Positions 1 through 41,316 of a stretch of DNA of 44,977 nucleotides are shown here, piece by piece. The first letter of the stretch is position 1; every line of letters begins with the position of its first letter. Both the position numbers and the translations under genes were made by a program. Under the pieces are notes generated by a model. It was not told the DNA's origin, did not search any database, and was given only the letters and a program-made list of their open reading frames with translations. This stretch comes from a virus (lineage: Duplodnaviria > Heunggongvirae > Uroviricota > Caudoviricetes): the IMG/VR virus record IMGVR_UViG_2563366968_000003; one strand, 5' to 3'.

Positions 1-189
<189 letters not shown>

Positions 190-1307
190 TTAAACGGTAT
201 CCACACATCGGGAAGCGGCTGCAAAACTTGTTTATACGGCTCCGCAGCCTGGCTTGCATACTCTCTGGCTGCGTCTTCACTTGCTTTTGCAGCCGTCTGG
301 CTTGCAGCGGATGCTTTCGCCGAGTTAGTCGCCGCAGTCTCGCTCGCCTTTGCGTTGGTTTCACTGGTTTTTGCAGCTTTTTGACTGTTGGCTGATGCAG
401 TGGCAGAAGAAGCCGCCGCACTTGCAGAACCAGCTGCGGCACTCTCGCTTTGGGCCGCTGCATCCTGACTGTTTTTCGCCGCAGTTTCGCTGGCTTTGGC
501 ATTCGTTTCGCTGGTCTTCGCTGCCGTCTGGCTGGACTTTGCGTTAGTTTCGCTCGTCTTCGCTGCTTTCTGGCTGTTAGCTGCAGCAGTTGCTGATCCA
601 GCTGCTGAAGTCGCAGAACCGGCTGCCGCACTCTCGCTTTCGGCTGCTGCAGCCTGACTGCTTTTCGCCGCAGTTTCACTGGTTTTGGCATTCGTTTCGC
701 TTGTTTTCGCTGCCGCCTGGCTGGACTTTGCGTTGGTTTCGCTCGTCTTTGCTGCTGTCTCGCTATTTTTCGCGTTGTTTTCTGATTTTTTAGCTGCTGT
801 CGCGGAGTTTGCCGATGCAGTCTGCGAGGCCGCTGCCGCCTGTGCGCTGTTAGCTGCATTCGTTTCTGAGGTTTTCGCCGCGTTCTTCGATGATGCCGCT
901 GCTGTTTCTGATTTCTTTGCTGCCGCTGCGCTCTGAGAGGCGGCTTCAGCGTTGCGTGCTGCTTCTTCCACCATTGCCTCAAAACGACGCAATGCCTCCG
1001 GCATGACATCATCTTCCGTCATGGCACCGAGAAAATCATTCAGCGTACCAGGTCTGGAACCTTCATAGACGGTAATGGTTCCGGCATGTGAAGGCGGAAA
1101 ACCTTCAACCAGCAGGGTGACGCTGTACTGGCCATACTCGACATCCATGCTGTAACGCCCGGCTTCATCCGGATTTTCAGAAGCCACCGTGTTCACCAGT
1201 ACCGTGGTGCTGTTACGCTTTGCCTTCAGTTGAATAGTGCAGTTCTGTATTGGTTTTCCCGCACCATCTTTCAGCACACCTGAGATTTTTACTGCTGCCA
1301 TATCCAC
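190..1307 (-). pseudogene. stf: Side tail fibre Stf, N-terminal ~372 codons only; interrupted by IS5 at 189/190
   Basis: ORF 162-1307 translation begins MDMAAVKISGVLKDGAGKPIQNCTIQLKAKRNSTT, matching recalled lambda Stf N-terminus; reading frame runs into the IS5 end. Confidence 0.8.
424..801. repeat. In-frame tandem duplication, two 189-bp (63-codon) units inside stf encoding Ala/Ser/Thr-rich repeats
   Basis: Units starting at 424 and 613 are near-identical (GCAGAACC...GCTGCTGAAGTC); protein shows repeated AAKTSETNAK blocks. Confidence 0.6.
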
Positions 1308-1310
1308 TCC

Positions 1311-1340
1311 ACAAAAAAGCCCGCCTGAACCGGCGGGCTG
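1311..1340 (-). terminator. Hairpin plus T-run between lom and stf (rho-independent terminator-like)
   Basis: Minus strand reads AGCCCGCC-GGTTCA-GGCGGGCT followed by TTTTTTGTG. Confidence 0.45.
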
Positions 1341-1365
1341 TCATAACACTGTGTTACCTGGCTAA

Positions 1366-1965
1366 TCAGAATTTATAACCGACACCCACGATGAAACCGT
1401 CAGTGCGCCAGTCACCACTGCCGGAGCCTTCATAAGCAATATCAATGGCCACGGATTCGGTCGGGTTAAACTGCACGCCAGCTCCCCACGCCAGAGACGT
1501 GTTGCTGTGGCGATCATCATCACTTCCGGTCAGCACATCGTGCGTTTTCCCCTTGTTGTCAGTTACGCGGAGATAATCCCCGGAGAACGTCGAAACACGG
1601 CTGTAAGCCATACCTGCCATCGCATAAGCACTGAACCATTCATTCACGCGTACAGATGGCCCCGCCATCATGCTGAACCAGCGGTTACGCACTGAATCTT
1701 CATGCCAGCGGGTATCGCTGTAATGCGTTTTTTGCTCATCTTTGGCATTGGCATAACTGAATGACGTCACCAGCCCCAGCGTGTCCGTAAATTCATAACG
1801 GTATTTCACGTTAATCCCGTTCAGATTATCGCTGCCGGGAACGTTCGTCGAGGCATGAAGATACCCCGCGCTCAGCGTGGACTGATGTTCAGATGCCCAT
1901 GCAGGCGCACCGGATACGGCCAGACAAATGGCTGCGGACAAAATGGCGGCATAAAGTTTACGCAT
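1366..1965 (-). CDS. lom: Lom outer-membrane protein (Ail/PagC/Lom family)
   Basis: 199 aa with signal peptide MRKLYAAILSAAICLAVSGAPAWA and beta-barrel-like C-terminus ending GYKF; position after J as in lambda. Confidence 0.85.
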   Translation of the reverse strand: MRKLYAAILSAAICLAVSGAPAWASEHQSTLSAGYLHASTNVPGSDNLNGINVKYRYEFTDTLGLVTSFSYANAKDEQKTHYSDTRWHEDSVRNRWFSMMAGPSVRVNEWFSAYAMAGMAYSRVSTFSGDYLRVTDNKGKTHDVLTGSDDDRHSNTSLAWGAGVQFNPTESVAIDIAYEGSGSGDWRTDGFIVGVGYKF

Positions 1966-1987
1966 AATTACCTCTCGCTTTTCTGCA

Positions 1988-2014
1988 ATAAAAAAGGCAC
2001 CATTTCTGGTGCCC
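1988..2014 (-). terminator. Rho-independent terminator-like hairpin downstream of J
   Basis: Minus strand GGGCACCAGAAATGGTGCC followed by TTTTTTT. Confidence 0.5.
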
Positions 2015-2034
2015 TTATATGGGTTATAACAATT

Positions 2035-5000
2035 TCAACGAATACTGATGCCGGAAGCGGCTTTTTTGGTCACAATCACCGTACAGTCGGTGATATTACC
2101 TGCCCGCTGATTGCCTTTATGGAAAACCTTAAACTCCAGAGTGACGCTTCCCCTGCCACTCGGCATATCAATAACCGCACTGTAGCTACCGGGAATGGCC
2201 CCTTTAGTTTCTCTGGATGCGATTAATACACCGTTTTTGCGAACTTCAAAACCATAACCCGTGTATCTTGTACCTCCCGGGTTATTACCACTTCCCGGAT
2301 CGCTATACGCTATTCCGTTAAAGATAATGGGCGGAATAATGATTTGACGGTCAAAGTTATGATCATCGCTGATGGTGACTGTAACCGTCCCGTTTGGTGT
2401 TTCCGTGTTACCCCACGTACCAGCCTGTTTCGGAAATGATTTGGATACAGCTTTAACGAAGTCACCTCTGACCTGAGTCGCCTCCAGCATGCCCTTAATC
2501 GTACAGTTTTCATTTACCGTGACATTGTTGAGCGTCCCGGCGTTCGCATTCACACTGCCACTGATATCCGCATTTTTAGCGGTCAGCTTTCCGTCCGGTG
2601 TCAGGGAAAATGCCGGTGGATTTCCACCACTGGTAATGGTCGGGGCCGTCAGGCGTTTCAGGAACACGTCGTTCATGAATATCTGATCGCCCTGACCAAC
2701 AAACATCGGTTTTGTGTTGCCATTCGCAGGATTAACCATCGCAATCCTGTCCGCCGCCAGCAGCACCTGACTCTGCATGCCGTCAGGGGTGTTCTCAATA
2801 CCGGCACCAATACCCGCGATATAAAGGCGTCCGTCCTGCATCTGCTGCAGCTTCACAGCCCACATGCTGTTCAGGTTATTATTTGTATCAACCTGAACCT
2901 TCTGTATCTGCTGAATTGCCGCACTCTGGTCTTCCAGTTTCTTATTGACGGTCTGCGTGATTTCATTGCTGACATGCGTAATGGACGTCCTGATTTCAGC
3001 CAGGTCAGGCGCAAGCTGACCGTTATCAATCTGCGTCCACAGCTCCTGAGCCAGATGGGTTTTCCCTATCTCGCCTTTGAAAAAATCCAGATAACCGGAT
3101 GCATCATCACTCGGCTGACCAACAGCCTCCACGAATGCCGATTTGCCGACGGTGTTCACACTGCGAACGTAAAAATAATAATCATGGCCCGGTTTGATAT
3201 TGATACTGGCAGCTATCCAGTACAGCGCCGTACCAAGATAGCGGGCTGTGGTTTCAACCTGCCTGATATCCGCAATCCGCTTTTCCGAGAACCAGAACTC
3301 AAACTGTACCGTCGGATCATAAACGGCAAGATGCGGCGTTGCGGTTATCTGAAAATAGCCCGGCGTCAGCTCAATCCGCGACGGTGCTGCCGGTGCGGCA
3401 ATCCGGAACGATACCGATGCCGGATCGCCCTGCTGCCCCCAGGCATTTGCCGCCCGGACTGTCAGCCTGTAGTTTCCCAGCGCCAGTTGCGTGAAGCGGT
3501 ATGTGGTTTCCGTCGTCCGGGCCGTGCTGACCAGCCGCTCACTGCCGTCGTCTGCTGCCACAGTCAGGCGAAGCATAAAGCTCACACCCTTCACCACCTT
3601 CGGCGTGTCCCATCGCGCCAGCACCTGATATTCCCCGCTGTCTGCAGTGACTTCGGCGGTCAGATGCTGCACTGCTGGCGGCGTGACACCATTCACCGTG
3701 CCGCTCTGGTCACCGTCAAAGTGCGCCCCGTTATCCACGATGGCCTCTTTCTCCGGCACATGCTGCACGGCAGTGATGGCATACGTGCCGTCGTCGTTCT
3801 CACGGATACTCACGCAGCGGAACAGGCGCTGGCGCAGCGTCGGCAGCTTAAGCCCCCACACGCTGTATTCAGCAACACCGTCAGGAACCCGGCTCACTTT
3901 TACCTTCACGCCGTCGGTGACGGACTGAACCTCCACGCTGACCGGACTCCCCTGCCCGTCAACCAGGCTTATCAGCGTGGTGCCGGAGGCTGGCAGCGTG
4001 ATTTCACGGTCGAGCGTCAGTGTCCGCGTCTGGCTGTTCACCGCCAGCACGCGCCCACCGGTGCTGATGCCCGCATAGTCATCATCGCAGATTTCAATGA
4101 CATCGCCCGGTACATGGCGAAGCCCTTCGGCACCCACGCTGAAGTCCACGGTCTGCGTTTCCAGCAGTTCTGTTTTAATCAGCCACAGCCCGGCTCGGTG
4201 CGCCTGCCCCCGACTGGTACAGCCAAACGCATCCATCTTCGTGACGTTACGACCGTAACGGGCAATGGCCTGCGTGTCCTCCACAAGCTCTGTCGCCGTC
4301 TCCCAGCCGTTATCCGGGTCAATCCAGTTCACCTCAACGGCATTATGGCGGTCCTTGAGGGCGCTGAAGCTGTAGCGGAACGGCGCGCCATCATCCGGCA
4401 TCACCACATTACTGCGGTTATAGGTCCACACCTTATCCGACGGCCGGTCCTGCACGAACGTCAGCGTCTGCCCGTTCCATACCGGCATACAGCGCATCGC
4501 CGAGCAGAAATCACTGAGCACATCCCACGCCTTGCGCTGTGTGGTCAGGTACGCATTACAGGTGATGCGCGGCTCCGTGCCGCCAAAGCCGTCCGGCACT
4601 GACTGGTCGCAGTACTGGCCGATGACATACAGCGCCCATTTGTCCACATCCGCCGCACCAAGACGTTTCCCCATGCCGTAGCGTGGATGGGTCAGCATAT
4701 CCCACAGACACCAGGCCATGTTATTGCTGTATGCTGGCTTAAACGTTCCGTCCCAGATACCGCTGTATTGCCGCGTCTGCGGGTTATAGTTCGACGGCAC
4801 CTGCAGAATGCGCCCGCGAAGATGATAATTACGGCTCACCTGCTGGCTGCCGAACTGCTCCGAGTCCACCTGCACGCCGACCAGTGCCGTGTTCGGGTAG
4901 CACTGTTTCACATCGATGATTTCTGTGTATGACGACCAGAGCGTTTTGTTCTGCAGCTGGTCTGTGGTGCTGTCCGGCGTCATCCTGCGCATCCGGATAT

Positions 5001-5532
5001 TAAACGGGCGCGGCGGCAGGTTATCCACCACCACCGAGGCCAGATACTGCGACGTGGTTTTGCCCTTAATGGTGATGTCTTTTTCCGTCACCCAGCCACC
5101 GTTACGCTGTATCTGAACCAGCAGACGGACTTCCGACGGATTCCTGTCACCCTTTGAGGTGGTTTCCACCAGTGCCTGCACACCGAAGGTAAAGCGCAGA
5201 CGGTCGATGTTTGCAGACGTGATGGTCCGGGTAATCGGCGTGTCGTACTTCACTTCCGTACCCAGCACCGTCTCGGAGCCGGAGGATTCAAACCCCTCCG
5301 GCGGTGTCTGCTCCTGCTCACCTGCCCGGAACACCACCGTGACGCCGGAGATATTGGTATTCCCCTCACTGTCCAGCACTGGCGTACTGTTCAGCAGCAC
5401 ACTTTTTAATCCGTCCACCGGACCTTCAATCGGCCCTTCACTGATGGCGTCTATCACGCTCAGCATCTGGGATGATTTCAGGTTGTCCTTCGCTTCGCGC
5501 GGGGTATGCCCCTTACTGCTGCCTTTACCCAT
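2035..5532 (-). CDS. J: Tail tip / host specificity protein J
   Basis: 1165 aa; N-terminus [20 protein letters not shown] and long central stretches match recalled lambda J; C-terminal portion diverges. Confidence 0.9.
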
Positions 5533-5592
5533 TCCTCACGCTCCAGAAACGACAAAACCGCCCGCAGGCGGTTTCACATAAAACATTTTGCA

Positions 5593-6264
5593 TCAGCGAC
5601 CAATCACCACAACCTGACCACCATCCCCTTCGTCTGCCGTGCTGATCTCCTGAGAGACCACCCGCGACCCCACGCGCATTTCACCGTACAGAACCGGCAG
5701 AACATTGCCCTGGGCAACCATGTTATCCAGTGAGGAGAAATAGGTGTTCTGTTTGCCGTTATCCGTTGTCTGTGTACGGGGAGTTCTGGCTTTCGGTGCC
5801 AGCATCTGCGCCACACCACCGAGCACCATACTGGCACCGAGAGAAAACAGGATGCCGGTCATACCACCGGCCCCAATGGCTGCCCCCCATGCTGCAAGGG
5901 TGGCCCCGGCGGTAAAGAATGATCCGGCAATGGCGGCAGCCCCCAGGACAATCTGGAATACGCCACCTGACTTGGCCCCGGCGACTCTGGGAACAATATG
6001 AATCACAGCGCCATCAGGCAGAGTCTCATGTAACTGCGCCGTTAATCCGGACGTGCTGACATCCTGCCCGGCAATCCGTACCTGATACCAGCCGTCGCTC
6101 AGTTTCTGACGAAACGCCGGGAGCTGTGTGGCCAGCGCCCGGATGGCTTCGGCTCCCGTTTTCACACGCAGATCGATGCGGCGACCAAATCGTTGTAAAT
6201 CCCCGTAAAGGCAGATGCGTGCCATGCCCGGTGACGCCAGAGGGAGTGTGTGCGTCGCTGCCAT
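5593..6264 (-). CDS. I: Tail assembly protein I
   Basis: 223 aa, same length as lambda I; overlaps K by 103 nt as in lambda. Confidence 0.85.
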   Translation of the reverse strand: MAATHTLPLASPGMARICLYGDLQRFGRRIDLRVKTGAEAIRALATQLPAFRQKLSDGWYQVRIAGQDVSTSGLTAQLHETLPDGAVIHIVPRVAGAKSGGVFQIVLGAAAIAGSFFTAGATLAAWGAAIGAGGMTGILFSLGASMVLGGVAQMLAPKARTPRTQTTDNGKQNTYFSSLDNMVAQGNVLPVLYGEMRVGSRVVSQEISTADEGDGGQVVVIGR

Positions 6265-6947
6265 TTGTCGGTATACCTCTCTCGTTTGCTCAGTTGTTCA
6301 GGAATATGGTGCAGCAGCTCGCCGTCACCACAGTAAATGGCGGCATGATTCGGCACCGATGAACCAAAACAGCACAACAGCACATCGCCCGGTTGTGCTG
6401 ATGACAACGGCACCTGATACAGCCCCGTGGCCTCCAGATTATCCAGATAGAGATTCTGACCGTTACGCCACCAGTCATCCCCGCGATGAAAATCCGGCAT
6501 CTCAATCCCCGCCAGATGATAAGCATCCCGGAACAGCGTGTAACAGTCCGTCACCCCGTGCTCAAAGCGCCGCCCGGTGAGATGCGGCACACAGCGGAAC
6601 TTATGAATCGTCCCCCGGCAGACCAGCCACCACGGCAAATCACTCTGCACCTGCAGCCGCCGGTCGGCCTCACTCAGCCAGGGCAGACCACCGGGGTGGC
6701 TGTGGACCAGCGCCACAATCTCACCCTGCATTTCTGCCTGCAGCCAGTCTTCCGGCGACAGCCTGAAATACGCCTCCGGCTTACCGGAGATATTCACACA
6801 GGGAAAATATCTTTCCCCTTCCGGCGTTCTCACCACGAAGCCGCACGACTCCGCTGGCGCACATCGCCGGGCGTGCGCCAGAATCGCTGATTCTGTCTCT
6901 GTCATGGGTTTACTGCGAAAGTTTGTTAATGGAAAGGAAGCCGCCAA
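6162..6947 (-). CDS. K: Tail assembly protein K (JAMM/MPN motif HSHPGG plus NlpC/P60-like C-terminus); start codon uncertain
   Basis: ORF 261 aa; HSHPGG metalloprotease-like motif; position between L and I. Confidence 0.75.
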   Translation of the reverse strand: MAASFPLTNFRSKPMTETESAILAHARRCAPAESCGFVVRTPEGERYFPCVNISGKPEAYFRLSPEDWLQAEMQGEIVALVHSHPGGLPWLSEADRRLQVQSDLPWWLVCRGTIHKFRCVPHLTGRRFEHGVTDCYTLFRDAYHLAGIEMPDFHRGDDWWRNGQNLYLDNLEATGLYQVPLSSAQPGDVLLCCFGSSVPNHAAIYCGDGELLHHIPEQLSKRERYTDKWQRRTHSLWRHRAWHASAFTGIYNDLVAASICV

Positions 6948-7608
6948 AGTTACCGACGTTATTGCGGAACTTACATCCGCTCAGGCATTTGCTGCATTTA
7001 TCCTTCGTGATATCGGACGTTGGCTGGTCATATTCATCCGCGACCGCCGGACCGTGATAACCGCACTCATCGCCGCGATAGGTCCAGGTGCAGGTGTTGG
7101 CCAGCATGATACGTCCCGGAAAAACAGCGCCGTCCGTTTCCGTCGACGTGGCCAGTACAAAGGAGGCACTGACCGCGCTCAGTTCGCTGCACTGCTCGAT
7201 GCGCCAGTGGCTGATCACCTCCTGCTCCGGATCGGCGTCTCTGTTTCCGTTGACGAAGTTCACCGCATCCAGAAAACGGGCGTAAACCTTACGCCTGACC
7301 ACCGTTCCGCCGACCAGACTCTGCAGGTCTTCCGCCATCCCGGTGACCATGCCGTGCAGGTTAGAAACCGTCAGTGTCGGACGGGCAGCACTGCCCTTGC
7401 CATTCAGTTCAAATCCCGTCCCCTGAATGGGGTATGCCTGATACTGCCGCCCCTGCCAGGTAACCGGCTCACCTTTTTCGTTCTGCTCATTACAGAAAAA
7501 ATAACGTTCTCCACCGACCTCTGTCAGATCGATTTCCCAGAGCACCACGCTGGCCGACTGCTCCGCACGGGTGCATTCATTCAGTGTTTCCTGCCGGATA
7601 TCCTGCAT
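6910..7608 (-). CDS. L: Minor tail protein L
   Basis: 232 aa, lambda L length and position. Confidence 0.85.
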   Translation of the reverse strand: MQDIRQETLNECTRAEQSASVVLWEIDLTEVGGERYFFCNEQNEKGEPVTWQGRQYQAYPIQGTGFELNGKGSAARPTLTVSNLHGMVTGMAEDLQSLVGGTVVRRKVYARFLDAVNFVNGNRDADPEQEVISHWRIEQCSELSAVSASFVLATSTETDGAVFPGRIMLANTCTWTYRGDECGYHGPAVADEYDQPTSDITKDKCSKCLSGCKFRNNVGNFGGFLSINKLSQ

Positions 7609-7937
7609 CAGTTCACCACCTGTTCAAACTCTGCGCTGAACTCAACACGCAGCATACTGACCCGCGACGACCATTTTGCGCAGGTCACCTTTATCTGCCG
7701 CCACTCATAAGGCGGCGTCCACAGAAAGGATTTCCAGCCCCCGTGCTCAGCCAGAAACGACTCAAGCGCCGTGGCCTCCCAACGGGGAACAGAAAGCGTC
7801 ACGCTGTACGTTTTCAGGTCAGCGTTCAGCCCGGCAGGCGCTCGCTGGGAATAGCCATCACCAAAGCGCACCTTTCTTACAGAAGGGACCGAAGCCACAT
7901 CCATACCGGGTTTCACTTTCCAGCGGAAGGTCTTCAT
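7608..7937 (-). CDS. M: Minor tail protein M
   Basis: 109 aa, lambda M length and position. Confidence 0.85.
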   Translation of the reverse strand: MKTFRWKVKPGMDVASVPSVRKVRFGDGYSQRAPAGLNADLKTYSVTLSVPRWEATALESFLAEHGGWKSFLWTPPYEWRQIKVTCAKWSSRVSMLRVEFSAEFEQVVN

Positions 7938-10513
7938 CGTCCACCTCCGGAGAACAGGCCACCATCACGCATCTGTGTCTGAATTTCATCGCGGGCACCC
8001 TTGCGGGCCATGTCATACACTGCTTTCATCATCTGTGGACCTGGCAGACCATTCGTACCGTCGTTCTGAATCACCACGTTGTTGTTCTGCTCAAACCTGA
8101 TACCCTCTGAACGCCGCATTTGCGCCGGACTTCCGGTGCCACCGACATAACCGCCGGTGGCATAGCCGCGCATCAGCCGGTAGAGATTTCCCACGCCAAT
8201 CCGGCTGGTTGCCTCCTTCGTGAAGACAAATTCACCACGGTGAACAATCCCCGCTGGCTCATATTTGCCGCCGGTTCCCGTAAATCCTCCGGTTGCAAAA
8301 TGGAATTTCGCCGCAGCGGCCTGAATGGCTGTACCGCCTGACGCGGATGCGCCGCCACCAACAGCCCCGCCAATGGCGCTGCCGATACTCCCGACAATCC
8401 CCACCATTGCCTGCTTAAGCAGAATTTCTGTCATCATGGACAGCACGGAACGGGTGAAGCTGCGCCAGTTCTGCTCACTGCCGGTCAGCATCGCCGCCAT
8501 ATTCTGTGCAATACCATCAAAGGTCTGCGTGGCTGCACTTTTTACCTGCGACATACTGTCCGTGGCGCTCTCTTCCCACTCACTCCAGCCGGACTTCAGG
8601 CCTGCCATCCAGCTCCCGCGAAGCTGGTCTTCAGCCGCCCAGGTCTTTTTCTGCTCTGACATGACGTTATTCAGCGCCAGCGGATTATCGCCATACTGTT
8701 CCTTCAGGCGCTGTTCCGTGGCTTCCCGTTCTGCCTGCCGCTCAGTCAGCCCCCGGCTTTTCGCATCAATGGCGGCCCGTTTTGCCCGTTGCTGCTGTGC
8801 GAATTTATCCGCCTGCTGCGCCAGCGCGTTCAGGCGCTCCTGATACGTAACCTTGTCGCCAAGTGCAGCCAACTGGCGTTTGTACTCCAGCGTCTCATCT
8901 TTATGCGCCAGCAGGGATTTCTCCTGTGCAGACAGCTGGCGACGTTGCGCCGCCTCCTCCAGTACCGCGAACTGACTCTCCGCCTTCCACAAATCCCGGC
9001 GCTGCTGGCTGATTTTCTCATTTGCTCCGGCATGCCTCTCCAGCGTCCAGAGTTCAGCCTGAAGCGTCAGCAGGGCAGCATGAGCACTGTCTTCCTGACG
9101 ATCGCCCGCAGACACCTTCACGCCGGACTGTTTCGCCTTTTTCAGCGTCGCTTCATAGTCCTTTTTCGCCGCCGCCATCAGCGTGTTGTAATCTGCCTGC
9201 AGAATTTTCCCGTCCTTCAGTGCCTTGTTCAGTTCTTCCTGACGGGCGGTATATTTCTCCAGCGGCGTCTGCAGGCGTTCATAAGCCTTCTGCGCCTCTT
9301 CGGTATATTTCAGCCGTGATGCCTCAGACTCGGCCCAGTCCTTTGCTGCCATCTCTCTGGCCTTTTCAAGATCGGCCTGCAACGTGGCGGCTGAAAGCCC
9401 AAGTTGCGCATTCGCTCTGTCCTCCCATGCTCCCCGGAGATTGGCAAGAAATGCGGATGTTTTACCGCGCCGGTGGCTCCGGCTCTGATACCACTGCCAT
9501 TTTTTGTCCGCCTCATCAAAAGCCTTTTCTGCTTTCTCCAGCATTTCCCGGGCAGTGTCCGGGCGACCAATATCCAGCACCGAATCCCACATGGATTTGA
9601 ATGCCCGTGCTGTCCTGTCTGCCCAGGTCTCCAGCGTGCCCATGTTCTCTTTCAGGCGGCGGGTCTGGTCATCAAACCCTTTCGTTGCGGCCTCGTTCGC
9701 CGCCTGCAATGCCCCGGCTTCATCTCCGGAACGCTGCAACTGAGCAACATACGCAATCTGCTCCGCCGTCACGTTATGGAACTGACGTGCCATCGCTGTC
9801 AGTCCCGACGTCGGGTCAGTGGTCAGCTTCCCGAAGGCTTCAGCGACCTTGTCCACCTCCACGCCGGATGCAGAGGAGAAACGCGCCACACTCTGGCTGA
9901 TCGCCTCAAACTGCTCACCACCACGCACACCGGCATTCACCAGCGCCGTCAGTGACTCGCTGGTCTGGTTAAACGTCAGCCCTGCCGCCTGCCCGGCTCT
10001 GGACAGGGCCAGAATACGATCTGCCGTCAGTCCCGCCTGATTGCCGGACAGGACCAGCGTTTTGTTGAAATCGGACAGGGTTGAGTTGCCCTGATACCAG
10101 GCATACGCCAGCGCACCGGTCGCCACCGCCAGCGAGGTGGCCCCCACCATCGGCAGGGTGATCGCACCGGCAAGCCCCCTGAACATGGGGATCATCCCGC
10201 CGAAGGAGTCCTTAACCTGACCACCCTGTTGCAGCAGGATCAGCCACGGACTTTGCCCGCCTGCAAGCTGCGTGGCCACGTCGGTGAACTGTGCAGGCAG
10301 CATACGCATGGCGGCTTTATACTGCCCGACGGAAATCCCCGCTTTCTGTGCAGCCAGCGCCTGTCGGCTCAGCGACTGTTCAACGACTGCCGCTGTTTTT
10401 TTCGCATCACTTTCCGTACCGGAAAAATGACGCCTGACTCTGGCCATCTGCTCGTCAAATCTGGCCGCATCCAGACTCAAATCAACGACCAGATCGCCTA
10501 CCGGTTCAGCCAT
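7934..10513 (-). CDS. H: Tail tape measure protein H
   Basis: 859 aa, coiled-coil rich, Gly-rich C-terminus; between G-T and M. Confidence 0.9.
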   Translation of the reverse strand: MAEPVGDLVVDLSLDAARFDEQMARVRRHFSGTESDAKKTAAVVEQSLSRQALAAQKAGISVGQYKAAMRMLPAQFTDVATQLAGGQSPWLILLQQGGQVKDSFGGMIPMFRGLAGAITLPMVGATSLAVATGALAYAWYQGNSTLSDFNKTLVLSGNQAGLTADRILALSRAGQAAGLTFNQTSESLTALVNAGVRGGEQFEAISQSVARFSSASGVEVDKVAEAFGKLTTDPTSGLTAMARQFHNVTAEQIAYVAQLQRSGDEAGALQAANEAATKGFDDQTRRLKENMGTLETWADRTARAFKSMWDSVLDIGRPDTAREMLEKAEKAFDEADKKWQWYQSRSHRRGKTSAFLANLRGAWEDRANAQLGLSAATLQADLEKAREMAAKDWAESEASRLKYTEEAQKAYERLQTPLEKYTARQEELNKALKDGKILQADYNTLMAAAKKDYEATLKKAKQSGVKVSAGDRQEDSAHAALLTLQAELWTLERHAGANEKISQQRRDLWKAESQFAVLEEAAQRRQLSAQEKSLLAHKDETLEYKRQLAALGDKVTYQERLNALAQQADKFAQQQRAKRAAIDAKSRGLTERQAEREATEQRLKEQYGDNPLALNNVMSEQKKTWAAEDQLRGSWMAGLKSGWSEWEESATDSMSQVKSAATQTFDGIAQNMAAMLTGSEQNWRSFTRSVLSMMTEILLKQAMVGIVGSIGSAIGGAVGGGASASGGTAIQAAAAKFHFATGGFTGTGGKYEPAGIVHRGEFVFTKEATSRIGVGNLYRLMRGYATGGYVGGTGSPAQMRRSEGIRFEQNNNVVIQNDGTNGLPGPQMMKAVYDMARKGARDEIQTQMRDGGLFSGGGR

Positions 10514-10940
10514 ACCGGACTCCTCCTGCGATCCCTTCTGATACTGTCATCAGCATTACGTCATCCTCCGTCATGTCCGCCACATCCGGGGAAGTAGGGA
10601 TAACTTCATTCCCGTCCGGGCCAAAGCGGACACCTCCGGCAAGCCCTGCCGCTTTCTGCATCAGCACATCATCTTCAGGCTCCTCGTCAGCCTCGCGCCG
10701 GTTCAGCAAACTGAAATCCAGCGGATGCATATCCGGATCGCTGAAAAACAGGCTGAGCACGGTGTACGTCAGCCCGGAAAAGTGCATATCCAGCAGAACA
10801 TCATGAAAATAATGGGTACTGTAAAAGCGGTGCCAGTCGGCATACTCCGTGGATGACATCCCGGCAAGCATGGCACGCCAGTCGGGTCGCCCCATCTCAC
10901 GCGCCAGTTTCAGGGCAAAACTCAGCTCACCGTCGAACAC
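10506..10940 (-). CDS. T: Tail assembly chaperone T reading frame (expressed as G-T fusion by -1 frameshift)
   Basis: 144-aa ORF overlapping the end of G in the -1 frame; slippery heptamer present. Confidence 0.8.
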   Translation of the reverse strand: MFDGELSFALKLAREMGRPDWRAMLAGMSSTEYADWHRFYSTHYFHDVLLDMHFSGLTYTVLSLFFSDPDMHPLDFSLLNRREADEEPEDDVLMQKAAGLAGGVRFGPDGNEVIPTSPDVADMTEDDVMLMTVSEGIAGGVRYG

Positions 10941-11344
10941 TTTCCCGCAGAAACAGGCTCTGCAGGCCCGGCGTCCTCTGTCTGTTCAGGGGTATTATTC
11001 ACAACAAACTCATACATACCAGACAGCCGGTACACCACGTTTTCAGCATGAGAAATTGCCTCCGTGGGCCAGGTGGTAAGCACTTCCTGCTCAATCTGTT
11101 TAACGGCTTCATTCATGGACGGCATCTGCGTCTTCTGCGGATGGTTATGCCACAGGGACATCGCCACCAGAAACGCGCCGGTTCTGATGGCGTCTTCCAC
11201 AGTAAACTTCCGGTTGCTGTCTGACTCCGCCTGTTCTGCCTGCCGTTTCATCAGGGCGAGATGCTCAATACGCTGCAGGGCTGACAGTTCAGAAAGCGTG
11301 ACGGTCACACCGTTATGTTCAAATGATTCGGTTTTCAGGAACAT
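10922..11344 (-). CDS. G: Tail assembly chaperone G
   Basis: 140 aa, lambda G length; precedes T. Confidence 0.85.
   Translation of the reverse strand: MFLKTESFEHNGVTVTLSELSALQRIEHLALMKRQAEQAESDSNRKFTVEDAIRTGAFLVAMSLWHNHPQKTQMPSMNEAVKQIEQEVLTTWPTEAISHAENVVYRLSGMYEFVVNNTPEQTEDAGPAEPVSAGKCSTVS
10940..10946 (-). promoter_or_regulatory. Programmed -1 ribosomal frameshift slippery site G GGA AAG (G to G-T)
   Basis: Minus strand reads TGCGGGAAAGTG at the G/T overlap; conserved mechanism in lambda-like tail chaperones. Confidence 0.7.
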
Positions 11345-11359
11345 CTCTGACTCTCCGGA

Positions 11360-12130
11360 TTAACTGGCGGTGACGGTGATTTCTGCAACCGCAGCAAACT
11401 CACCATTACCGGATACGACCGGAATGTTGACCTTACCTGCAGCAACGCCATTCACGGTGATGGTCATACCACTGACCGACACGGTGGCTTTTGTTTTATC
11501 CGCTGACACCGCACGGAAGCTCTTGTCGGTTGCGCCTTCCGGCTGGAATGCCACGGTCAGCGTGGTGCTCTTCCCTTTCACTACGGAAGCGCTGGCTGGC
11601 GTCACGGTCATACCGGTTGCCGCTGTTACCGTGCTGCGATCTTCTGCCATCGACGGACGTCCTACGTTGGTGACTTTCACCGTGCGGGTGATCACGTCCT
11701 TCGCCGTCACCGCCTTACCGATACTGCTGACCCAGCCGCGGAACACATCGACCGTGCCGTTCGGGAAGCGGATTTTATAGGCACGGGTATCACCTTCATT
11801 AAACCACGCCAGCAGCGCCTGCTGCCCCTGCTCTCCGGGCATCCACGCCAGCGTGAAGCTGGTATCTCCGGCAGATTTCTGCCCCTGTCCGGTCGCGGTC
11901 CAGTCCGCATCTTCATCATCGAGATAACTGTCGTCATAGGACTCAGCGGTCAGTTCGCCGGGCGTCAGGTCTTTAACCTTTGCCAGACGCGACCAGTCAT
12001 TGTCTGAAAGCGGGTTTGCATAAGGGTCGCCGCTCCCGTTATAAACCCACAGTGTGGTCCCGGCCCCTTTCACCGGTGCCAGAGGATTTGGTGTTGGCAT
12101 ATCGTCCTCACATTTCATAGGTAATGACAT
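11360..12130 (-). CDS. V: Major tail protein V (with C-terminal Ig-like domain)
   Basis: 256 aa; position and size as lambda V. Confidence 0.9.
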
Positions 12131-12503
12131 AAGTCAGATCGGCTGAACTCCACAGGCCCGCATCATCGTCGCGCCGGTAGTCATAGCCACTGGCCACCAT
12201 ACTGGTGATCAAATCTGACAGTGCCGGGATATCGCTCATCACCGGATAAATCCGGGACTCCATCCACGAATCCAGCTCTGAATCCGGCACCTGAGCAGGC
12301 AGGAAAACTTCAATATGCAGCTCCGCCTGCCAGGTATCGCTGTCCAGCTCTTCGCCCGTGTATTCAGCGCCGGTGAGATAAACGGCAATTGCCGGAAAAT
12401 CTTCCTCATCAAAAACAGCGGGGCGACCATCAAAAAGCGTCGCCCCGGTGTCATGCTTCTCCAGTGCATCCAGTACGGCTGCACGGAGTTCAGTATGTTT
12501 CAT
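12108..12503 (-). CDS. U: Tail terminator protein U
   Basis: 131 aa, lambda U length and position. Confidence 0.85.
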
Positions 12504-13078
12504 CGCTTTATTACCATTCTCAGTTGATGCTGCAGCGCATAGCCCAGCTCTTTCGGAAGACGCTCACGCCGTATCCGCTCAATATTCTGTTTAAACGCCG
12601 TGGTCAGCGGCACCGCCATCGGAATTTTCACCACATCAATGGGGTAACGGTTTTTCCCGGCCACACGCTGCATGACATGCCACCGGCCATTTTTCAGTTG
12701 CTGAATAAACGCGCCGGGAATACGACGGTTTCCCACCACAAGCACGCTGCCGCCACCTTTCAGGGATGAACGCTGCCCCTTTTTACGACGCCTGCGGCGG
12801 GACAGGACAACCCGCGCATTACCCAGCTTGATTACGGGCAAATCCCCCCGGTTAACCCTGATTCTGGCCTGCGGATTTTTGACCGTGGCCCTTTTCAGCC
12901 TGGCCCTTTCCTTTACCAGTTTCCGGCGTACCTTTGTCTCACGGGCAACCTGTGACGCCGACTGCGATATCGCGGATGAAGCAACGCGGTTAATGGCCAT
13001 TGCGGCGGCACCGGGCACCGCCGTTTTGCTGATACGGCTGAGGTTTTCAACGGCCTGCTCAAGACCTTTTATGGCCAT
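12500..13078 (-). CDS. Z: Tail completion protein Z
   Basis: 192 aa, lambda Z length and position. Confidence 0.85.
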   Translation of the reverse strand: MAIKGLEQAVENLSRISKTAVPGAAAMAINRVASSAISQSASQVARETKVRRKLVKERARLKRATVKNPQARIRVNRGDLPVIKLGNARVVLSRRRRRKKGQRSSLKGGGSVLVVGNRRIPGAFIQQLKNGRWHVMQRVAGKNRYPIDVVKIPMAVPLTTAFKQNIERIRRERLPKELGYALQHQLRMVIKR

Positions 13079-13089
13079 ACATCCCCCTT

Positions 13090-13443
13090 TCAGCGGCGAC
13101 GGTTAACGGCAGGCGGTACGCCCCGCCCAAGCCAGAGATGACAGCTTCCGCCATCATCCGGCGAAATCCGGTCTATCCAGAAGTTTTCCTCACCGATGGT
13201 CAGCGTGTCGCCGCGCCGCAGCTGCCGCACATCATCAGTCCGGACAAACAGGGACGGGCTGGAGCCTTCAACGCGTACGCCCTGTCCGGCATAGCTGATA
13301 TTTTCAGGGTCATCAAAAACACCACGTATTACTGCGCCGGACTGCTCACCGGATGTCATGGTGGCTGACGTTCCCATGTACCCGCGTATCGTTTCATCGG
13401 CGCGGGCAATGGCAGCATCGAACAGGTTATCGAAATCAGCCAC
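13090..13443 (-). CDS. FII: Head-tail joining protein FII
   Basis: 117 aa, lambda FII length and position. Confidence 0.85.
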   Translation of the reverse strand: MADFDNLFDAAIARADETIRGYMGTSATMTSGEQSGAVIRGVFDDPENISYAGQGVRVEGSSPSLFVRTDDVRQLRRGDTLTIGEENFWIDRISPDDGGSCHLWLGRGVPPAVNRRR

Positions 13444-13454
13444 AGCGCCTCCCG

Positions 13455-13889
13455 TTATTGCATTCTGGCCAGGCCACGTTCTGTCATTTCGGCTGCCACA
13501 CCGGCAGAGACACGAAACGCCGTTCCCGGCAGCACAAATGCCACAGCCTCATCCCGCGTGGCGTGAAGTGCATCGGTATGCAGCGTCACCAGTGCCACAA
13601 CCGTGACCAGAGCAGCCGTATCAGTCACGGAATCCGGCTGTGCTGATACCACCTCATTTTCATGTCCGGTCAGCGCATTTTCCGGGCTGACAGACGTGTC
13701 CTGACCGGCTGCGTCATCCGTGTCATCAAGCTCCTCTTCCAGCTCTGCCACACGGAGCGCCAGTTCTTCTTTCGTCCCCGTCAGGCTGACATCACGGTTC
13801 AGTTGCTCACCCAGCGACCGGAGACGGGCAATCAGTTCATCTTTCGTCATGGACTCCTCCACAGAGAGAAAATGGCCCCGAAGGGCCAT
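13455..13889 (-). CDS. FI: DNA packaging protein FI
   Basis: 144 aa acidic protein between E and FII. Confidence 0.8.
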   Translation of the reverse strand: MALRGHFLSVEESMTKDELIARLRSLGEQLNRDVSLTGTKEELALRVAELEEELDDTDDAAGQDTSVSPENALTGHENEVVSAQPDSVTDTAALVTVVALVTLHTDALHATRDEAVAFVLPGTAFRVSAGVAAEMTERGLARMQ

Positions 13890-13891
13890 GA

Positions 13892-14917
13892 TTACGCCAG
13901 TTGAACGGACACGAACTCATCAGGGTCAGCCAGCAGCATCAGCGGTGCTGACTGAATCATGGTGAACTCACGCGCCGGGTCGCCGGTGGTCACCCAGTTT
14001 TTCGGGTAACGGGCAGAGGCGTTAATGCCTTCGCGCTGTGCGTCCGCATCCTGAATGCAACCATAGGTGCGCAGACCGCGTGCCTGAGTGTTCCCCAGCA
14101 CCATCGTGTTGTCCGGCAGGAAGTTCTTTTTGACGCCGTTTTCCACGTACTGTCCGGAATACACGACGATGGCCACATCGCCATACATTCCCTTATAAGA
14201 CACCGCTTTACCCAGGTCTTTTACCGCTGTCTCCAGCTCGGAATGAGAGCCGCGACGGGTATCCAGCTTCTCCTTGACGGCCTTGAAGGAACGGAACAGC
14301 GCCCAGCCTTTCGGATCAAACACGATGATATTCACCACACCGCTGGCGTTCAGCGCGTAGGCTTCGATATCGTCGGTCGGGTCATACGTGGACTTGTCAC
14401 GCTTGCTCCACTCTGTGCCGCCGGACTGCGTGATGTTATTCGCCGCACTGCGGCCCATATCCACCTCAACCGGATCGAAGGCTTCACCGGTCATGGTGTA
14501 TTTGCCCTTAAGCACGGCAGAAACTGCCTGCATCTCTTCGACCTGGGCAATCGCCAGATTTTCATCCAGCATATTCTGCCGAATAATACGGCGACGACGG
14601 TAAGCCGGGTCAGCCAGGTTCTGCGGATCTTCATCCGGCAGGCGACGCAGGGTCATCTGCGGATTCACCTCATGCTTGGGTTTGACATAACCCGGCGTAA
14701 ATTCAGAGGTGGAGCCGCCACGGGATCGGATAACCTCACCGGAAACAATCGGCGAAACGTACAGCGCCATGTTTACCAGTCCCGGAATTTGTGAGAGATA
14801 GACTTTTTCCGTGGTGAAAGGATAGGTTTCACGGAAAAACAGGCGCAGAAACAGCGGATCGAACTTAAAGTGATGCTGGGTCGATGCCAGTAATTCTGCA
14901 GTTGTATATACAGACAT
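13892..14917 (-). CDS. E: Major capsid protein E
   Basis: 341 aa, lambda E length; N-terminus MSVYTTAELLA. Confidence 0.9.
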   Translation of the reverse strand: MSVYTTAELLASTQHHFKFDPLFLRLFFRETYPFTTEKVYLSQIPGLVNMALYVSPIVSGEVIRSRGGSTSEFTPGYVKPKHEVNPQMTLRRLPDEDPQNLADPAYRRRRIIRQNMLDENLAIAQVEEMQAVSAVLKGKYTMTGEAFDPVEVDMGRSAANNITQSGGTEWSKRDKSTYDPTDDIEAYALNASGVVNIIVFDPKGWALFRSFKAVKEKLDTRRGSHSELETAVKDLGKAVSYKGMYGDVAIVVYSGQYVENGVKKNFLPDNTMVLGNTQARGLRTYGCIQDADAQREGINASARYPKNWVTTGDPAREFTMIQSAPLMLLADPDEFVSVQLA

Positions 14918-14930
14918 AAATTATTTCCAT

Positions 14931-14953
14931 AAAAAAAGCCGCACAGGCGGCCT
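14931..14953 (-). other. Stable hairpin followed by T7 run in the D-E intergenic space
   Basis: Minus strand GGCCGCCTGTGCGGC followed by TTTTTTT. Confidence 0.4.
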
Positions 14954-14972
14954 TTGTTGATGAAGGGGAAGA

Positions 14973-15305
14973 TTAAACGATGCTGATTGCCGTTCCGGCA
15001 AACGCGGTCCGTTTTTTAGTCTCGTCGCTGGCAGCCTCCGGCCAGAGCACATCCTCATAACGAAACGAGCCGGACTTGTAGAACGTCAGTGTGGTGCTGG
15101 TCTGGTCAGCAGCAACCGACAGAATGCCAACGGCTGCACCGTCGGTGGTGCCATCCCACACAACCAGCTTACGGGTAGTGCCATCCAGCATCAGCGGGGT
15201 CATTGCAGGCGTTTTCGCACTCAATCCGCCAGGCGCAATTGCTGTATGAGCCGGATCACTGTTACCCAGCGGCTGGTAATGGTTAAACTCTTCTTTTGTC
15301 GCCAT
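14973..15305 (-). CDS. D: Head decoration protein D
   Basis: 110 aa, lambda D length; N-terminus [22 protein letters not shown]. Confidence 0.85.
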
Positions 15306-15314
15306 AACTGCCTC

Positions 15315-16626
15315 TTATACCGGTAAAGCTTCAGGTGTATTAAGTAATTCTTTATTGGTATCAGATGCCAGGTTACCTGCAGCCAGCGGTGCCGGTGTAC
15401 CCTGCATCAGACGATCCAGCGCAGTGTCACTGCGCGCCTGTGCACTCTGTGGTGCTGCAGCCAGAATGCGGCGGGCCGTTTCCACGGTCATTCCGGGGGT
15501 TTCTGCCAGAACGCGCGCCTGTTCTTCGCGTCCGTGAGCCTCCTCACAGTTGAGGATCCCCATAATGCGGCTGTTTTCTGCCGCAACCGCTGCGGTGATC
15601 TGCGCGTTCACGTCCGGCTGCGCCGCGCTGGCGTTTTCGCCCTCCGTCGCTGGCACCACGTCAGTAACGTCAGCCTGCGAAGCAGTGGCTGAAACAGTTG
15701 TTGATTGAGTCTCTTTGGTCATTCGTCCTCCTGAGAGACGGGATTTACGCGCATCCAGTGCATCACGCATGACGGTGATCGCATCGGTGCTGTTAACAAG
15801 TTCATCAGCCAGTCCGGCATCAATGGCCTCCTGACCGCTGTACACTGCAGCCTCGGTATCCAGCACAGCCTGCACAGACAGGCCGGTATATGCCGACACC
15901 TTCTGCGCAAACATCTGGCGGGTTGCGTCCATCCGGGACTGCAGTGTCTCCCGGACGTCATCCGGAAGATGGCTGTAGGGATTGCCATCCACCTTATGGC
16001 TGCCGCTGTAAATCAGCGTGATTTCCACACCCTGTTTCTCCAGGGCAGCACCGTAATTACTGTGAGCCATCATGACGCCGATGGAGCCTGTCCGGGCGGT
16101 CTGCGTGACCAGACGCCGGGAGGCGGCACTGGCAAGCAGCTGACCTGCACTGCAGTTCATGTCGTTGGCCAGCGCCCATACCGGTTTTATGTCACGCACA
16201 CGGGCGATGATGTCAGCGCAGTCAAATGCCCCCGCCACCATTCCGCCTGGCGTGTCCATATCGAGCAGAATGCCGTCCACCATCGGGTCGCTGGCAGCCT
16301 GTTGCAGACGGGCGATAATGCCGTTGTAACCGGTCATCCCCGAGTACGGCTGCAGCGCCCGCGTCCGGCTGACCAGCGTGCCGGACACCGGCAGCACGGC
16401 GATGCCGTTCATGACCTGATAACTGCGGGCCTGTCGTGGTCCGTCATCATCACCGGATAATGCCAGCGTCGCGAGTGCCTCCTGGGCAGTCAGGCTGTCG
16501 CCGGACACCGCATCCGTCAGGCGGCTGATCCCAAGCTGGCCTGCAAGCGCACAAAAGAAAACCCGCGCATAGGCGGGTTCAAGCATCAGCGGCTCATTAA
16601 AGGCCATGCTGGCAATATGCGGGAGA

Positions 16627-16646
<20 letters not shown>
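15315..16646 (-). CDS. C: Prohead protease / scaffold C (Nu3 made from an in-frame internal start); probable GTG start at 16646
   Basis: ORF contains VTAELRNLPHIASMAFNEPL matching recalled lambda C N-terminus; AGGAGG precedes the GTG; 20-nt overlap with B end as in lambda. Confidence 0.8.
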
Positions 16647-20327
<3,681 letters not shown>

Positions 20328-21062: not shown

Positions 21063-21261
21063 CGTAACCTGTCGGATCACCGGAAAGGACCCGTAAAGTG
21101 ATAATGATTATCATCTACATATCACAACGTGCGTGGAGGCCATCAAACCACGTCAAATAATCAATTATGACGCAGGTATCGTATTAATTGATCTGCATCA
21201 ACTTAACGTAAAAACAACTTCAGACAATACAAATCAGCGACACTGAATACGGGGCAACCTC

Positions 21262-21495
21262 ATGTCAACGAAGAACAGAACCCGCAGAACAACAACCCGC
21301 AACATCCGCTTTCCTAACCAAATGATTGAACAAATTAACATCGCTCTTGAGCAAAAAGGGTCCGGGAATTTCTCAGCCTGGGTCATTGAAGCCTGCCGCC
21401 GGAGACTGTGCTCAGAAAAAAGAGTTTCTTCTGAAGCAAACAAAGAAAAGAGTGACATTACTGAATTGCTCAGAAAACAGGTCAGACCAGATTGA
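21262..21495 (+). CDS. Hypothetical small protein, possible ribbon-helix-helix fold; homologue of an ORF near the lambda right end
   Basis: 77-aa ORF; DNA 21234-21420 matches recalled lambda right-end sequence then diverges. Confidence 0.4.
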   Translation: MSTKNRTRRTTTRNIRFPNQMIEQINIALEQKGSGNFSAWVIEACRRRLCSEKRVSSEANKEKSDITELLRKQVRPD

Positions 21496-22322: not shown

Positions 22323-23379
22323 GGCTTTGTTGAATAAATCAGATTTCGGGTAAGTCTCCCCCGTAGCGGGTTGTGTTTTCAGGCAATACGCACGCTTTCA
22401 GGTATACCTGCTTTCGTCATTTTGTTCAGCGCTCGTACCAGGGCCATAGCCTCCGCAACCTGACCATCGTAGTCACGCAGCGTCAGTGAACCCCCGAACA
22501 GCTGTTTTACCCGGTACATCGCCGTTTCCGCTATCGAGCGACGGTTGTAATCTGTTGTCCATTTCCACCGCGCATTACTCCCGGTCATTCGCTGATTAGC
22601 CACTGCACGGTTACGGTCTGCATATTCACCGGGCCAGTAACCCGCACCTTTTCGGGGAGGGATAAGCGCGCTGATTTTCTTACGCCGCAGTTCATCGTGA
22701 CATAGCCGGGTATCGTAAGCGCCATCGGCGGCGGCTGACCTGATTTTCCGGTGGGTTTGCCGGATTAACCCGGGGAAGGCCTCTGAGTCCGTAACGTTGT
22801 TCAGCGACAGGTCAGCGCAGATGATTTCATGTGTTTTACTGTCAACGGCGAGATGCAGCTTACGCCAGATACGGCGGCGTTCCTGGCCATGCTTTTTGAC
22901 TTTCCACTCGCCTTCACCGAAGACCTTCAGCCCGGTGGAATCAATTACCAGGTGTGCGATTTCACCCCGGGTGGGCGTTTTGAAACTGACATTAACCGAC
23001 TTTGCCCGCCTGCTGACACAGCTGTAATCCGGGCAGCGTAGCGGAACGTTCATCAGAGAAAAAATGGAATCAATAAAGCCCTGCGCAGCCCGCAGGGTCA
23101 GCCTGAATACGCGTTTAATGACCAGCACAGTAGTGATGGCAAGGTCAGAATAGCGCTGAGGTCTGCCTCGTGAAGAAGGTGTTGCTGACTCATACCAGGC
23201 CTGAATAGCTTCATCATCCAGCCAGAAAGTTATGGAGCCACGGTTGATGAGGGCTTTATTGTAGGTGGGCCAGTTGGTGATTTTGAACTTTTGCTTTGCC
23301 ACGGAACGGTCTGCGTTGTCGGGAAGATACGTGATCTGATCCTTCAACTCAGCAAAAGTTCGATTTATTCAACAAAGCC
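22323..23379 (-). mobile_element. IS903-group insertion sequence (IS5 family), 1057 bp, with 9-bp target duplication CTTTCCAGT at 22314-22322 and 23380-23388
   Basis: Terminal inverted repeats GGCTTTGTTGAATAAATC at both ends; identical 9-bp direct repeats flank the element. Confidence 0.85.
22379..23347 (-). CDS. IS903-type DDE transposase
   Basis: 322-aa ORF filling the element; C-terminus RRSIAETAMYRVKQLFGGSLTLRDY...AGIPESVRIA typical of the IS903 group. Confidence 0.8.
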   Translation of the reverse strand: MKDQITYLPDNADRSVAKQKFKITNWPTYNKALINRGSITFWLDDEAIQAWYESATPSSRGRPQRYSDLAITTVLVIKRVFRLTLRAAQGFIDSIFSLMNVPLRCPDYSCVSRRAKSVNVSFKTPTRGEIAHLVIDSTGLKVFGEGEWKVKKHGQERRRIWRKLHLAVDSKTHEIICADLSLNNVTDSEAFPGLIRQTHRKIRSAAADGAYDTRLCHDELRRKKISALIPPRKGAGYWPGEYADRNRAVANQRMTGSNARWKWTTDYNRRSIAETAMYRVKQLFGGSLTLRDYDGQVAEAMALVRALNKMTKAGIPESVRIA

Positions 23380-32412: not shown

Positions 32413-33726
32413 TCAATCTTTTTTATCGGGATCAGGCTTCTTTTTAGGTAACTTCGGGGGCTTAACTTGCTGATGACTTTGCGTTCGGCGCGTAAGCCAG
32501 GGATGGTCAGCTTTAGGTTTAACATAGTATTTTGAGCGTAAATCAATACGGGCATTATCCACTCGTTCATGGACACTCTTTTCATCATCCAGTGGTATAG
32601 GCTCCGGGCCATCAACATACTTTTCCCAGCCCAGCGCTTTCCCGTCATACAGAACGTTAATTTCACCGTCAAAGTTCTCGCATACAGTAACAACCGAATG
32701 CCTAAGTCGATATCCCCGGCCCTCACTGCGTACCTGAAACGCACTGCTTTTGTACTGGAAAGTGAGATTTTTAGACAGAACGCGCTTCGCCTGTAGGCTG
32801 AAGATATAACCCAGTTCCTCTTCAGAATGGTGCACATCAAGATGAGCATTATCAGTAGTACGAGGCGACGTAGCGAACCGGTTGTTATAGGCTTCAATAA
32901 AGGTCGGCAACCATGCATTTGCTGTTTCAATATCACTGATATTCTGAAGCCGCATTTCTTTGACCAGCCTGTCCTGTAGTGTCTGATTGGCGCGCTCTAC
33001 CCGCCCTTTTGCCTGCGGGCTGTTGGCATGGATTGGCTCGATGCCCAGTGTCTTTATCGCACGAGTGAACTGGGTCAGCTCACCTTCCCGCTCTGGGTTA
33101 TTTACCCTGAATATACTGTGTCTATCAGAGTAGAGAGCGAGCGGTACGCCATGATCATTAAGGTAACCCCGGAGGGTTTCCATGTAAGCCCGAGTTGTTT
33201 CAGCAGGCACAAAACGCAACGCCATCAACGCACTGGTGGCATCATCAATGAAAACGATCAGTGTACATCTGGGGCCTCGATTTTCAAACCAGTCATGAGG
33301 TGAGCCATCAATCTGGATCAGTTCACCGTAAGATGGTCGTCGCATGCGGCGTTGATATATACGGGCAATTTTACGACGGCGTTCACGCCATAACCCCTCT
33401 TCTATCATCCACTTTCTGAGAGTTTCAACGGATAAAGATAAACCGTGTATCTCGCGCAATTTTTCGCACGCAAACGTAGGTCCAAAATCAGCGTAACGGC
33501 CTTTGAGGAGTGAAATTACTGTTGCTCTGAATTCAGTAGAAAAGGAATTATTAGGACGCTTTCCACGTCGGTGGGAAACCAGACCAGAAGGCCCTTCATT
33601 TCTATACCGTTGCACCAGACGTTTAACCTGCCGAATAGAAATGCCAATGCGTGCCGCAGCTTGTTCCTGAATAATCTGAAGTCGGTGGAGTTCCTTATGA
33701 CTCATCGTAACAGTCTCTTTGATCAT
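32413..33726 (-). CDS. DDE transposase/integrase of the rve superfamily with N-terminal helix-turn-helix (IS481/ISNCY-like); element boundaries not resolved
   Basis: 437 aa; DDE residues in IQIDGSPHD, LALYSDRHSIF and KGRVERANQTLQDRL; N-terminal HTH region. Confidence 0.7.
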   Translation of the reverse strand: MIKETVTMSHKELHRLQIIQEQAAARIGISIRQVKRLVQRYRNEGPSGLVSHRRGKRPNNSFSTEFRATVISLLKGRYADFGPTFACEKLREIHGLSLSVETLRKWMIEEGLWRERRRKIARIYQRRMRRPSYGELIQIDGSPHDWFENRGPRCTLIVFIDDATSALMALRFVPAETTRAYMETLRGYLNDHGVPLALYSDRHSIFRVNNPEREGELTQFTRAIKTLGIEPIHANSPQAKGRVERANQTLQDRLVKEMRLQNISDIETANAWLPTFIEAYNNRFATSPRTTDNAHLDVHHSEEELGYIFSLQAKRVLSKNLTFQYKSSAFQVRSEGRGYRLRHSVVTVCENFDGEINVLYDGKALGWEKYVDGPEPIPLDDEKSVHERVDNARIDLRSKYYVKPKADHPWLTRRTQSHQQVKPPKLPKKKPDPDKKD

Positions 33727-34351: not shown

Positions 34352-35546
<1,195 letters not shown>

Positions 35547-41224: not shown

Positions 41225-41316
41225 AACAGTTCCGTAATAAATATCCGGTTTCATTCTTATATGCCAGCAATGGCAGGGATTTGTTCATCCTTAAATCTGT
41301 CATGAGGTTAAAACAA

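Follow-up and report, generated by a model that had tools for sequence, protein, structure and literature searches.

Mosaicism at the J C-terminus is textbook lambdoid genetics, as is the h434 host range. In the J protein of phage lambda, the alpha-helical shaft comprises residues 809-861; when the receptor is bound, the receptor-binding domain (RBD) spreads and the prism undergoes a twist, while the shaft flips over and refolds in part, changes through which the FNIII domains are released and the tip is opened (PMC11101478). Lambda gpJ (8iyk, 8xcj, 8xck) is LamB-specific, and point mutations in lambda J are able to switch it to OmpF (PMC11101478). Phage 434 uses OmpC, and placing the 434 fibre gene in lambda retargets the phage to OmpC (PMC3509688, PMC11101478). 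Likewise, the grafting of natural C-terminal J variants onto lambda gpJ generates particles retargeted to OmpC, and two of these OmpC-targeting natural C-termini, A8 and 1A2, accept different OmpC alleles (PMC11338833). OmpC is also used by the gpJ proteins of phi330 and A8 (PMC12502783, PMC11338833). A 2026 receptor-prediction preprint treats GpJ of the Drexlerviridae type, not lambdoid J.

The window, which is the whole stretch of viral DNA analysed here (IMG/VR record IMGVR_UViG_2563366968_000003; 44,977 nucleotides), contains the gene for a tip attachment protein/central tail fibre at 2035..5532 on the minus strand. It is a complete ORF, which on translation gives 1165 aa plus stop; the lengths given in the sequence-only reading, 1165 aa here and 1132 aa for lambda J, are both correct when compared with this translation and with the lambda reference (NC_001416 15505-18903, NP_040600, 1132 aa). 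In a phmmer search, residues 1-1164 align with residues 1-1131 of lambda gpJ in the PDB (8iyk_J; E=0, 2154 bits), and six Pfam domains are found in the order FNIII-A_GpJ, Phage-tail_3, Ig_J, Ig_J_second, Phage_Tail_Tip (aa 872-1000), and Ig_GpJ_C, the last described as the 'C-terminal receptor binding domain' (aa 1029-1164, window 2041-2448, E=1.3e-25). Homology to the lambda family therefore extends over the full length, through the hub, two FNIII/Ig domains, shaft, fibre, and Ig-like RBD, and Pfam matches in the neighbouring ORFs place the gene in a tail cluster with the order H-M-L-K-I-J-lom-stf. The gene is J, and the head and tail module of the prophage in which it lies is of lambda type. 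This J gene very probably encodes an intact lambda-family J made up of four recombinational segments, the RBD trimer of which would most probably dock on OmpC.

Directly downstream of J, as in lambda, is lom, encoding an Ail/Lom outer-membrane protein (1366..1965, minus strand; Pfam Ail_Lom, E=1e-123), followed by the side tail fibre gene stf (162..1307, minus strand; Pfam phage_tail_N), which has been shortened by IS5 to 381 aa. Window 1-192 is occupied by the IS5 end, which matches the end of a complete IS5 copy at about 34352-35549 with 99.5% identity, and homology to six other genomes with an identical J ends at window 190; in these, stf encodes 782-792 aa. Upstream of J are I, K, L, and M and the tape measure gene H, all of lambda type (5593..10513, minus strand; Pfam Lambda_tail_I, JAB/NlpC_P60). 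These tail-tip genes have 95% DNA identity to lambda 11712-18002 and are in the same order in loci L010-L015. Overall, the minus strand from 21062 to 3036 is co-linear with lambda 1..18002, from nu1 to about J codon 832, at 95-96% DNA identity, broken once by a gap of approximately 200 bp within gene H. The match at this identity is limited to nu1-J, the early region not being lambda-like in its DNA. Window 21062 corresponds to lambda 1, and window 21063-21424 to lambda 48502-48141 with 98% identity. At about 21062/21063 lies the joined cos site, as in a genome of lambda type that is integrated or circularly permuted.

The non-lambda half of the window contains three transposase ORFs on the minus strand, of the DDE_Tnp_1_5/DDE_Tnp_1 type (22379-23347), the HTH plus rve type (32413-33726), and the IS5 InsH type (34498-35514), and also encodes a Q antiterminator and a lysozyme. 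On the plus strand is an 835-aa ORF (41281-43788) with a C-terminal Rv2179c-like 3′-5′ exoribonuclease domain, the first ~650 aa of which have no Pfam match, and at the window edge a 215-aa phage integrase ORF (44132-44779) containing only the N-terminal arm-binding and SAM-like parts, which may be truncated. No tRNA genes were found in the window.

This IS-ridden prophage may be defective and, due to the several IS elements, including the IS5 in stf, its J may never enter an infectious particle. It is possible, if unlikely, that J is a relic without present function in a decaying prophage, its mosaic form being only history; the three transposase ORFs within the prophage, the shortened stf, and the integrase ORF of just 215 aa are what would be expected on this reading. 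However, J is an ORF of full length in which none of the six Pfam domains is disrupted, its protein is identical to copies in many genomes, with the flanking tail genes at 99.6-99.9% DNA identity, and the head and tail module has kept its co-linearity with lambda but for the single gap in H. Nor does the shortened side fibre speak strongly for decay, since lambda PaPa, which like the window prophage has no functional stf, reportedly still infects. An intact J is therefore preferred.

Compared with lambda J, the divergence lies in two separate cassettes, the shaft and the RBD, with a conserved island of 60 residues between them. Identity is 97% over aa 1-806, falls to 51% over aa 807-945 with 28 gapped columns and a net insertion of 28 aa, returns to 95% over aa 946-1000, and falls again to 43% over aa 1001-1165 with 17 gapped columns. 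In 50-column bins of the global alignment, 46-50 residues are identical up to aa 800; past this point the next two bins have 22/50 and 14/50, 28 columns being gapped, and the third has 29/50, before aa 951-1000 with 49/50 and later bins with 24, 19, and 14 identical residues to the C-terminus. The sequence-only reading had proposed a sharp drop after about residue 800. This is right as to its position, identity being 97% until aa 806, but not as to a single step, as aa 941-1000 are conserved. Similarly, the span on which it was based (2035-2900, aa 878-1165) contains the RBD and the island, but of the first divergent cassette, the start of which is at window 3114, it takes in just the lower half.

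The C-terminal cassette (module D; 2035..2532, minus strand; aa 1001-1165 plus stop) is an RBD of the phage 434 type. Its amino acid identity is 95%, without gaps, to 434 J (OL657226, UMO75286.1, 1137 aa), as against 43% to lambda J residues ~973-1132, 50% to Stx2 phage 1717, 48% to phi330, and about 50% to 9wca, so that the divergent C-terminal part recognised earlier is indeed not that of lambda and is not of the A8/phi330 type either. Over the last 176 aa, the protein is 100% identical to phi458, 99.4% to Stx2c/Stx1a phages, 94.9% to 434, and 42% to lambda. Structure prediction of the C-terminus, which had been suggested as a check, gives the Ig-like gpJ RBD fold: in the AF2 model the RBD has pLDDT of 77-90 in most 10-residue blocks and 55-69 in two blocks, and the best Foldseek matches are the gpJ fibres 9wca, 8xcj, 8xck, and 9wcb, with probability 1.0. 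Among these, 9wcb is a gpJ RBD bound to OmpC. The PDB is without any 434-type RBD structure, the best sequence match there being about 50% identical. By both close sequence identity and fold, the RBD is therefore placed with that of 434.

With 95% identity to the RBD of 434, the protein most probably binds OmpC and not LamB as its porin; the sequence gives good grounds for inferring that LamB is not the receptor and that OmpC is the likeliest one. In the proposed mechanism, the tail tip would be closed, as in lambda, by three copies of J, which would also form the central fibre extending from it, the trimer being assumed by analogy. At the end of the fibre, the RBD trimer would attach to an outer-membrane porin that is itself a trimer, and this binding would be passed up the fibre via the shaft, causing the tip to open and the DNA to be ejected. 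In the literature on phages with this J (phi458, Ayreon, mEp332, PhiR series), no receptor experiment was found for any phage with an identical RBD, and no receptor report for phi458 or Ayreon.

Within aa 1001-1165 there are eight differences from 434 (V1006I, E1008Q, S1032A, Q1036K, A1037V, N1047D, S1077D, and R1127G). Since point mutations in J shift porin use, these substitutions could alter the range of OmpC alleles accepted relative to 434, or even the receptor. A 434-like RBD that has drifted to another receptor, whether OmpF, LamB, or certain OmpC alleles only, is nevertheless improbable. In its favour, besides the eight substitutions, are the point mutations by which lambda J reaches OmpF (PMC11101478) and the different OmpC alleles accepted by the A8 and 1A2 C-termini (PMC11338833). 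Against this, the 95% identity to 434 holds across the whole RBD, phages phi458 and Ayreon, with RBDs 97-100% identical, list K-12-derived hosts, as does 434, and the RBD class is highly conserved, being present at >=80% DNA identity in 2114 genomes. OmpC therefore remains the favoured receptor, and the tail tip is best annotated as '434-type, probably OmpC-specific' rather than LamB-specific.

The mosaic tail tip proposed from the sequence alone is supported, in that the segments match different phages in turn: lambda/434, 1717, and 434. The J product is put together from four recombinational segments, of which module D is the last. Module A (3115..5532, minus strand; aa 1-806), the hub domains and two FNIII/Ig domains, is lambda/434-type, with 97% amino acid identity to lambda and 98% to 434 and with 90-100% nucleotide identity in 20-codon bins. 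Module B (2713..3114, minus strand; aa 807-940), the alpha-helical shaft together with the uppermost part of the straight fibre, is of the Stx phage 1717 type; it is 97% identical to 1717 in amino acids and 87-98% in nucleotides, whereas against lambda and 434 it has a net gain of 28 aa, about 51-52% amino acid identity to both with 28 gaps, and 40-65% nucleotide identity. Module C (2533..2712, minus strand; aa 941-1000), the lower straight fibre, is the crossover zone between the cassettes. It lies within Pfam Phage_Tail_Tip, has 87-98% nucleotide identity to lambda/434, and contains many invariant columns in an alignment of eight J proteins. When the J proteins of lambda, 434, and the window are aligned together, the first two are identical as far as the end of the shaft; near aa 1000, 434 changes to an RBD of its own, and from this point the window J tracks 434. 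The simplest description is a 434-type J in which the shaft cassette has been replaced internally.

In a DNA comparison, lambda and the window match at 95% between window 8000 and 3036, the latter equivalent to lambda 18002 near J codon 832; beyond this the only lambda match is at 2866-2479, with a mean of 79%, and there is no lambda DNA match past window 2479 towards the 3′ end of J. When J is divided into 20-codon bins, those up to aa 800 match lambda DNA at 90-100%, that of aa 801-820 at 83%, those of aa 821-940 at 40-67%, those of aa 941-1000 at 87-98%, and the later ones at about 40-70%; this codon alignment excludes a uniform identity to lambda along J. G+C is 0.55-0.63 across 3000-5500 and drops to 0.47-0.51 across 2000-3000. 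Although the receptor-binding fibre ends of phages are generally fast-evolving, the suggestion that the J C-terminus has, without recombination, simply evolved faster from a lambda-like ancestor under diversifying selection is refuted and can be set aside as exceedingly improbable, because the identity shifts abruptly and not gradually in the codon bins, DNA identity is about 90-100% to separate donors (1717 over aa 741-960 and 434 over aa 1001-1165), the block between the 1717-like and 434-like parts is 87-98% identical to lambda, and the G+C changes at the junction.

Recombination between J lineages is also reflected in the combinations of shaft and RBD among the eight aligned proteins. A short shaft is combined with the LamB-type RBD in lambda and with the 434-type RBD in 434 and Stx2c_JNE091235, and a long shaft is combined with the 434-type RBD in the window J and phi458 and with a third RBD class in 1717 and Lambda_ev203. 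These four combinations show that the shaft and RBD cassettes assort independently, as does the 97% identity of module B to that of 1717, a phage whose RBD differs. The crossovers sit in two stretches whose sequence every lineage shares, aa ~741-810 and ~941-1000, and the second of these, the universally conserved lower fibre, would serve as a crossover zone. The boundaries in aa 941-1000 coincide with the region in which natural J C-termini were grafted onto lambda gpJ (PMC11338833).

The equivalent of the lambda shaft in the window J is probably aa ~809-889 (window 2866-3108), which would make it 28 residues longer than that of lambda. In an AF2 monomer model of aa 801-1165, helices are predicted at J 811-887, with pLDDT for the shaft and fibre of <50, and the helices are for this reason indicative only. 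Low monomer pLDDT is expected in the shaft and fibre of an interwoven trimer. The insertion of 28 residues equals four heptads, which was considered as coiled-coil evidence and rejected as arithmetic only, the a/d pattern across aa 809-889 being weak in a simple heptad count. A longer alpha-helical latch might alter the reach of the fibre through O-antigen or capsule, or the trigger threshold for DNA ejection. That the shaft cassette is a second exchanged functional module and that, separately, the RBD substitutions tune the fibre to particular OmpC alleles is a doubtful proposal.

Comparison with individual phages shows which parts are held in common. The J of 434 is like the window J over aa 1-806 (98%) and the RBD (95%), and its gene occupies an equivalent position, lom and stf following it, but it has the short shaft of lambda, whereas the window cassette at aa 807-940 is 28 aa longer and 1717-type. 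Lambda gpJ agrees with it in domain architecture and presumably also in trigger mechanism; it differs in its shaft, 28 aa shorter, in its RBD, 43% identical, and probably in its receptor. The 1717 and Lambda_ev203 proteins have the long shaft cassette in common with the window J at 97%, however the hub of 1717 J is just 76% identical and its RBD is of the third class. This class, represented by 1717, Lambda_ev203, phi330, and A8, is about 48-50% identical to the window RBD. The A8 structures 9wca/9wcb ('A8 gpJ 713', with the OmpC of EDL933) have an RBD that matches phi330 (L006 2601-3680) over the compared region, so that the engineered A8 chimera (PMC11338833) can be linked to an RBD class found in nature, that of phi330/1717.

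The same J mosaic of 1165 aa is already in GenBank in phi458 (OP434518), cdtI (NC_009514), Ayreon (MF807953), and ev099, from which the window J has point differences only; full-length DNA identity of these J genes is 95.6-98%, with more phages at 94.5-95%, and they are annotated just as 'tail tip/host specificity protein J'. The J arrangement has long been known and is ordinary, and it is the common natural form in E. coli prophages. In a survey of 5426 complete E. coli genomes, with the RBD counted at >=80% DNA identity, the 434-type RBD DNA of the window is present in 2114, with 2101 of 2117 matching records at >=90% DNA identity, and the long-shaft cassette is present in 3609. The LamB-type RBD of lambda itself was found in 98 of the 5426, all at >=99% identity; among the matches listed, its carriers are three genomes, which are laboratory strains. 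As the lambda RBD is rare and the 434-type RBD and long shaft are common, lambda is a poor reference for natural lambdoid prophages, and the window J looks divergent only because lambda serves as the reference. In a public collection of assemblies, 89 index blocks contain the exact 1165-aa J protein.
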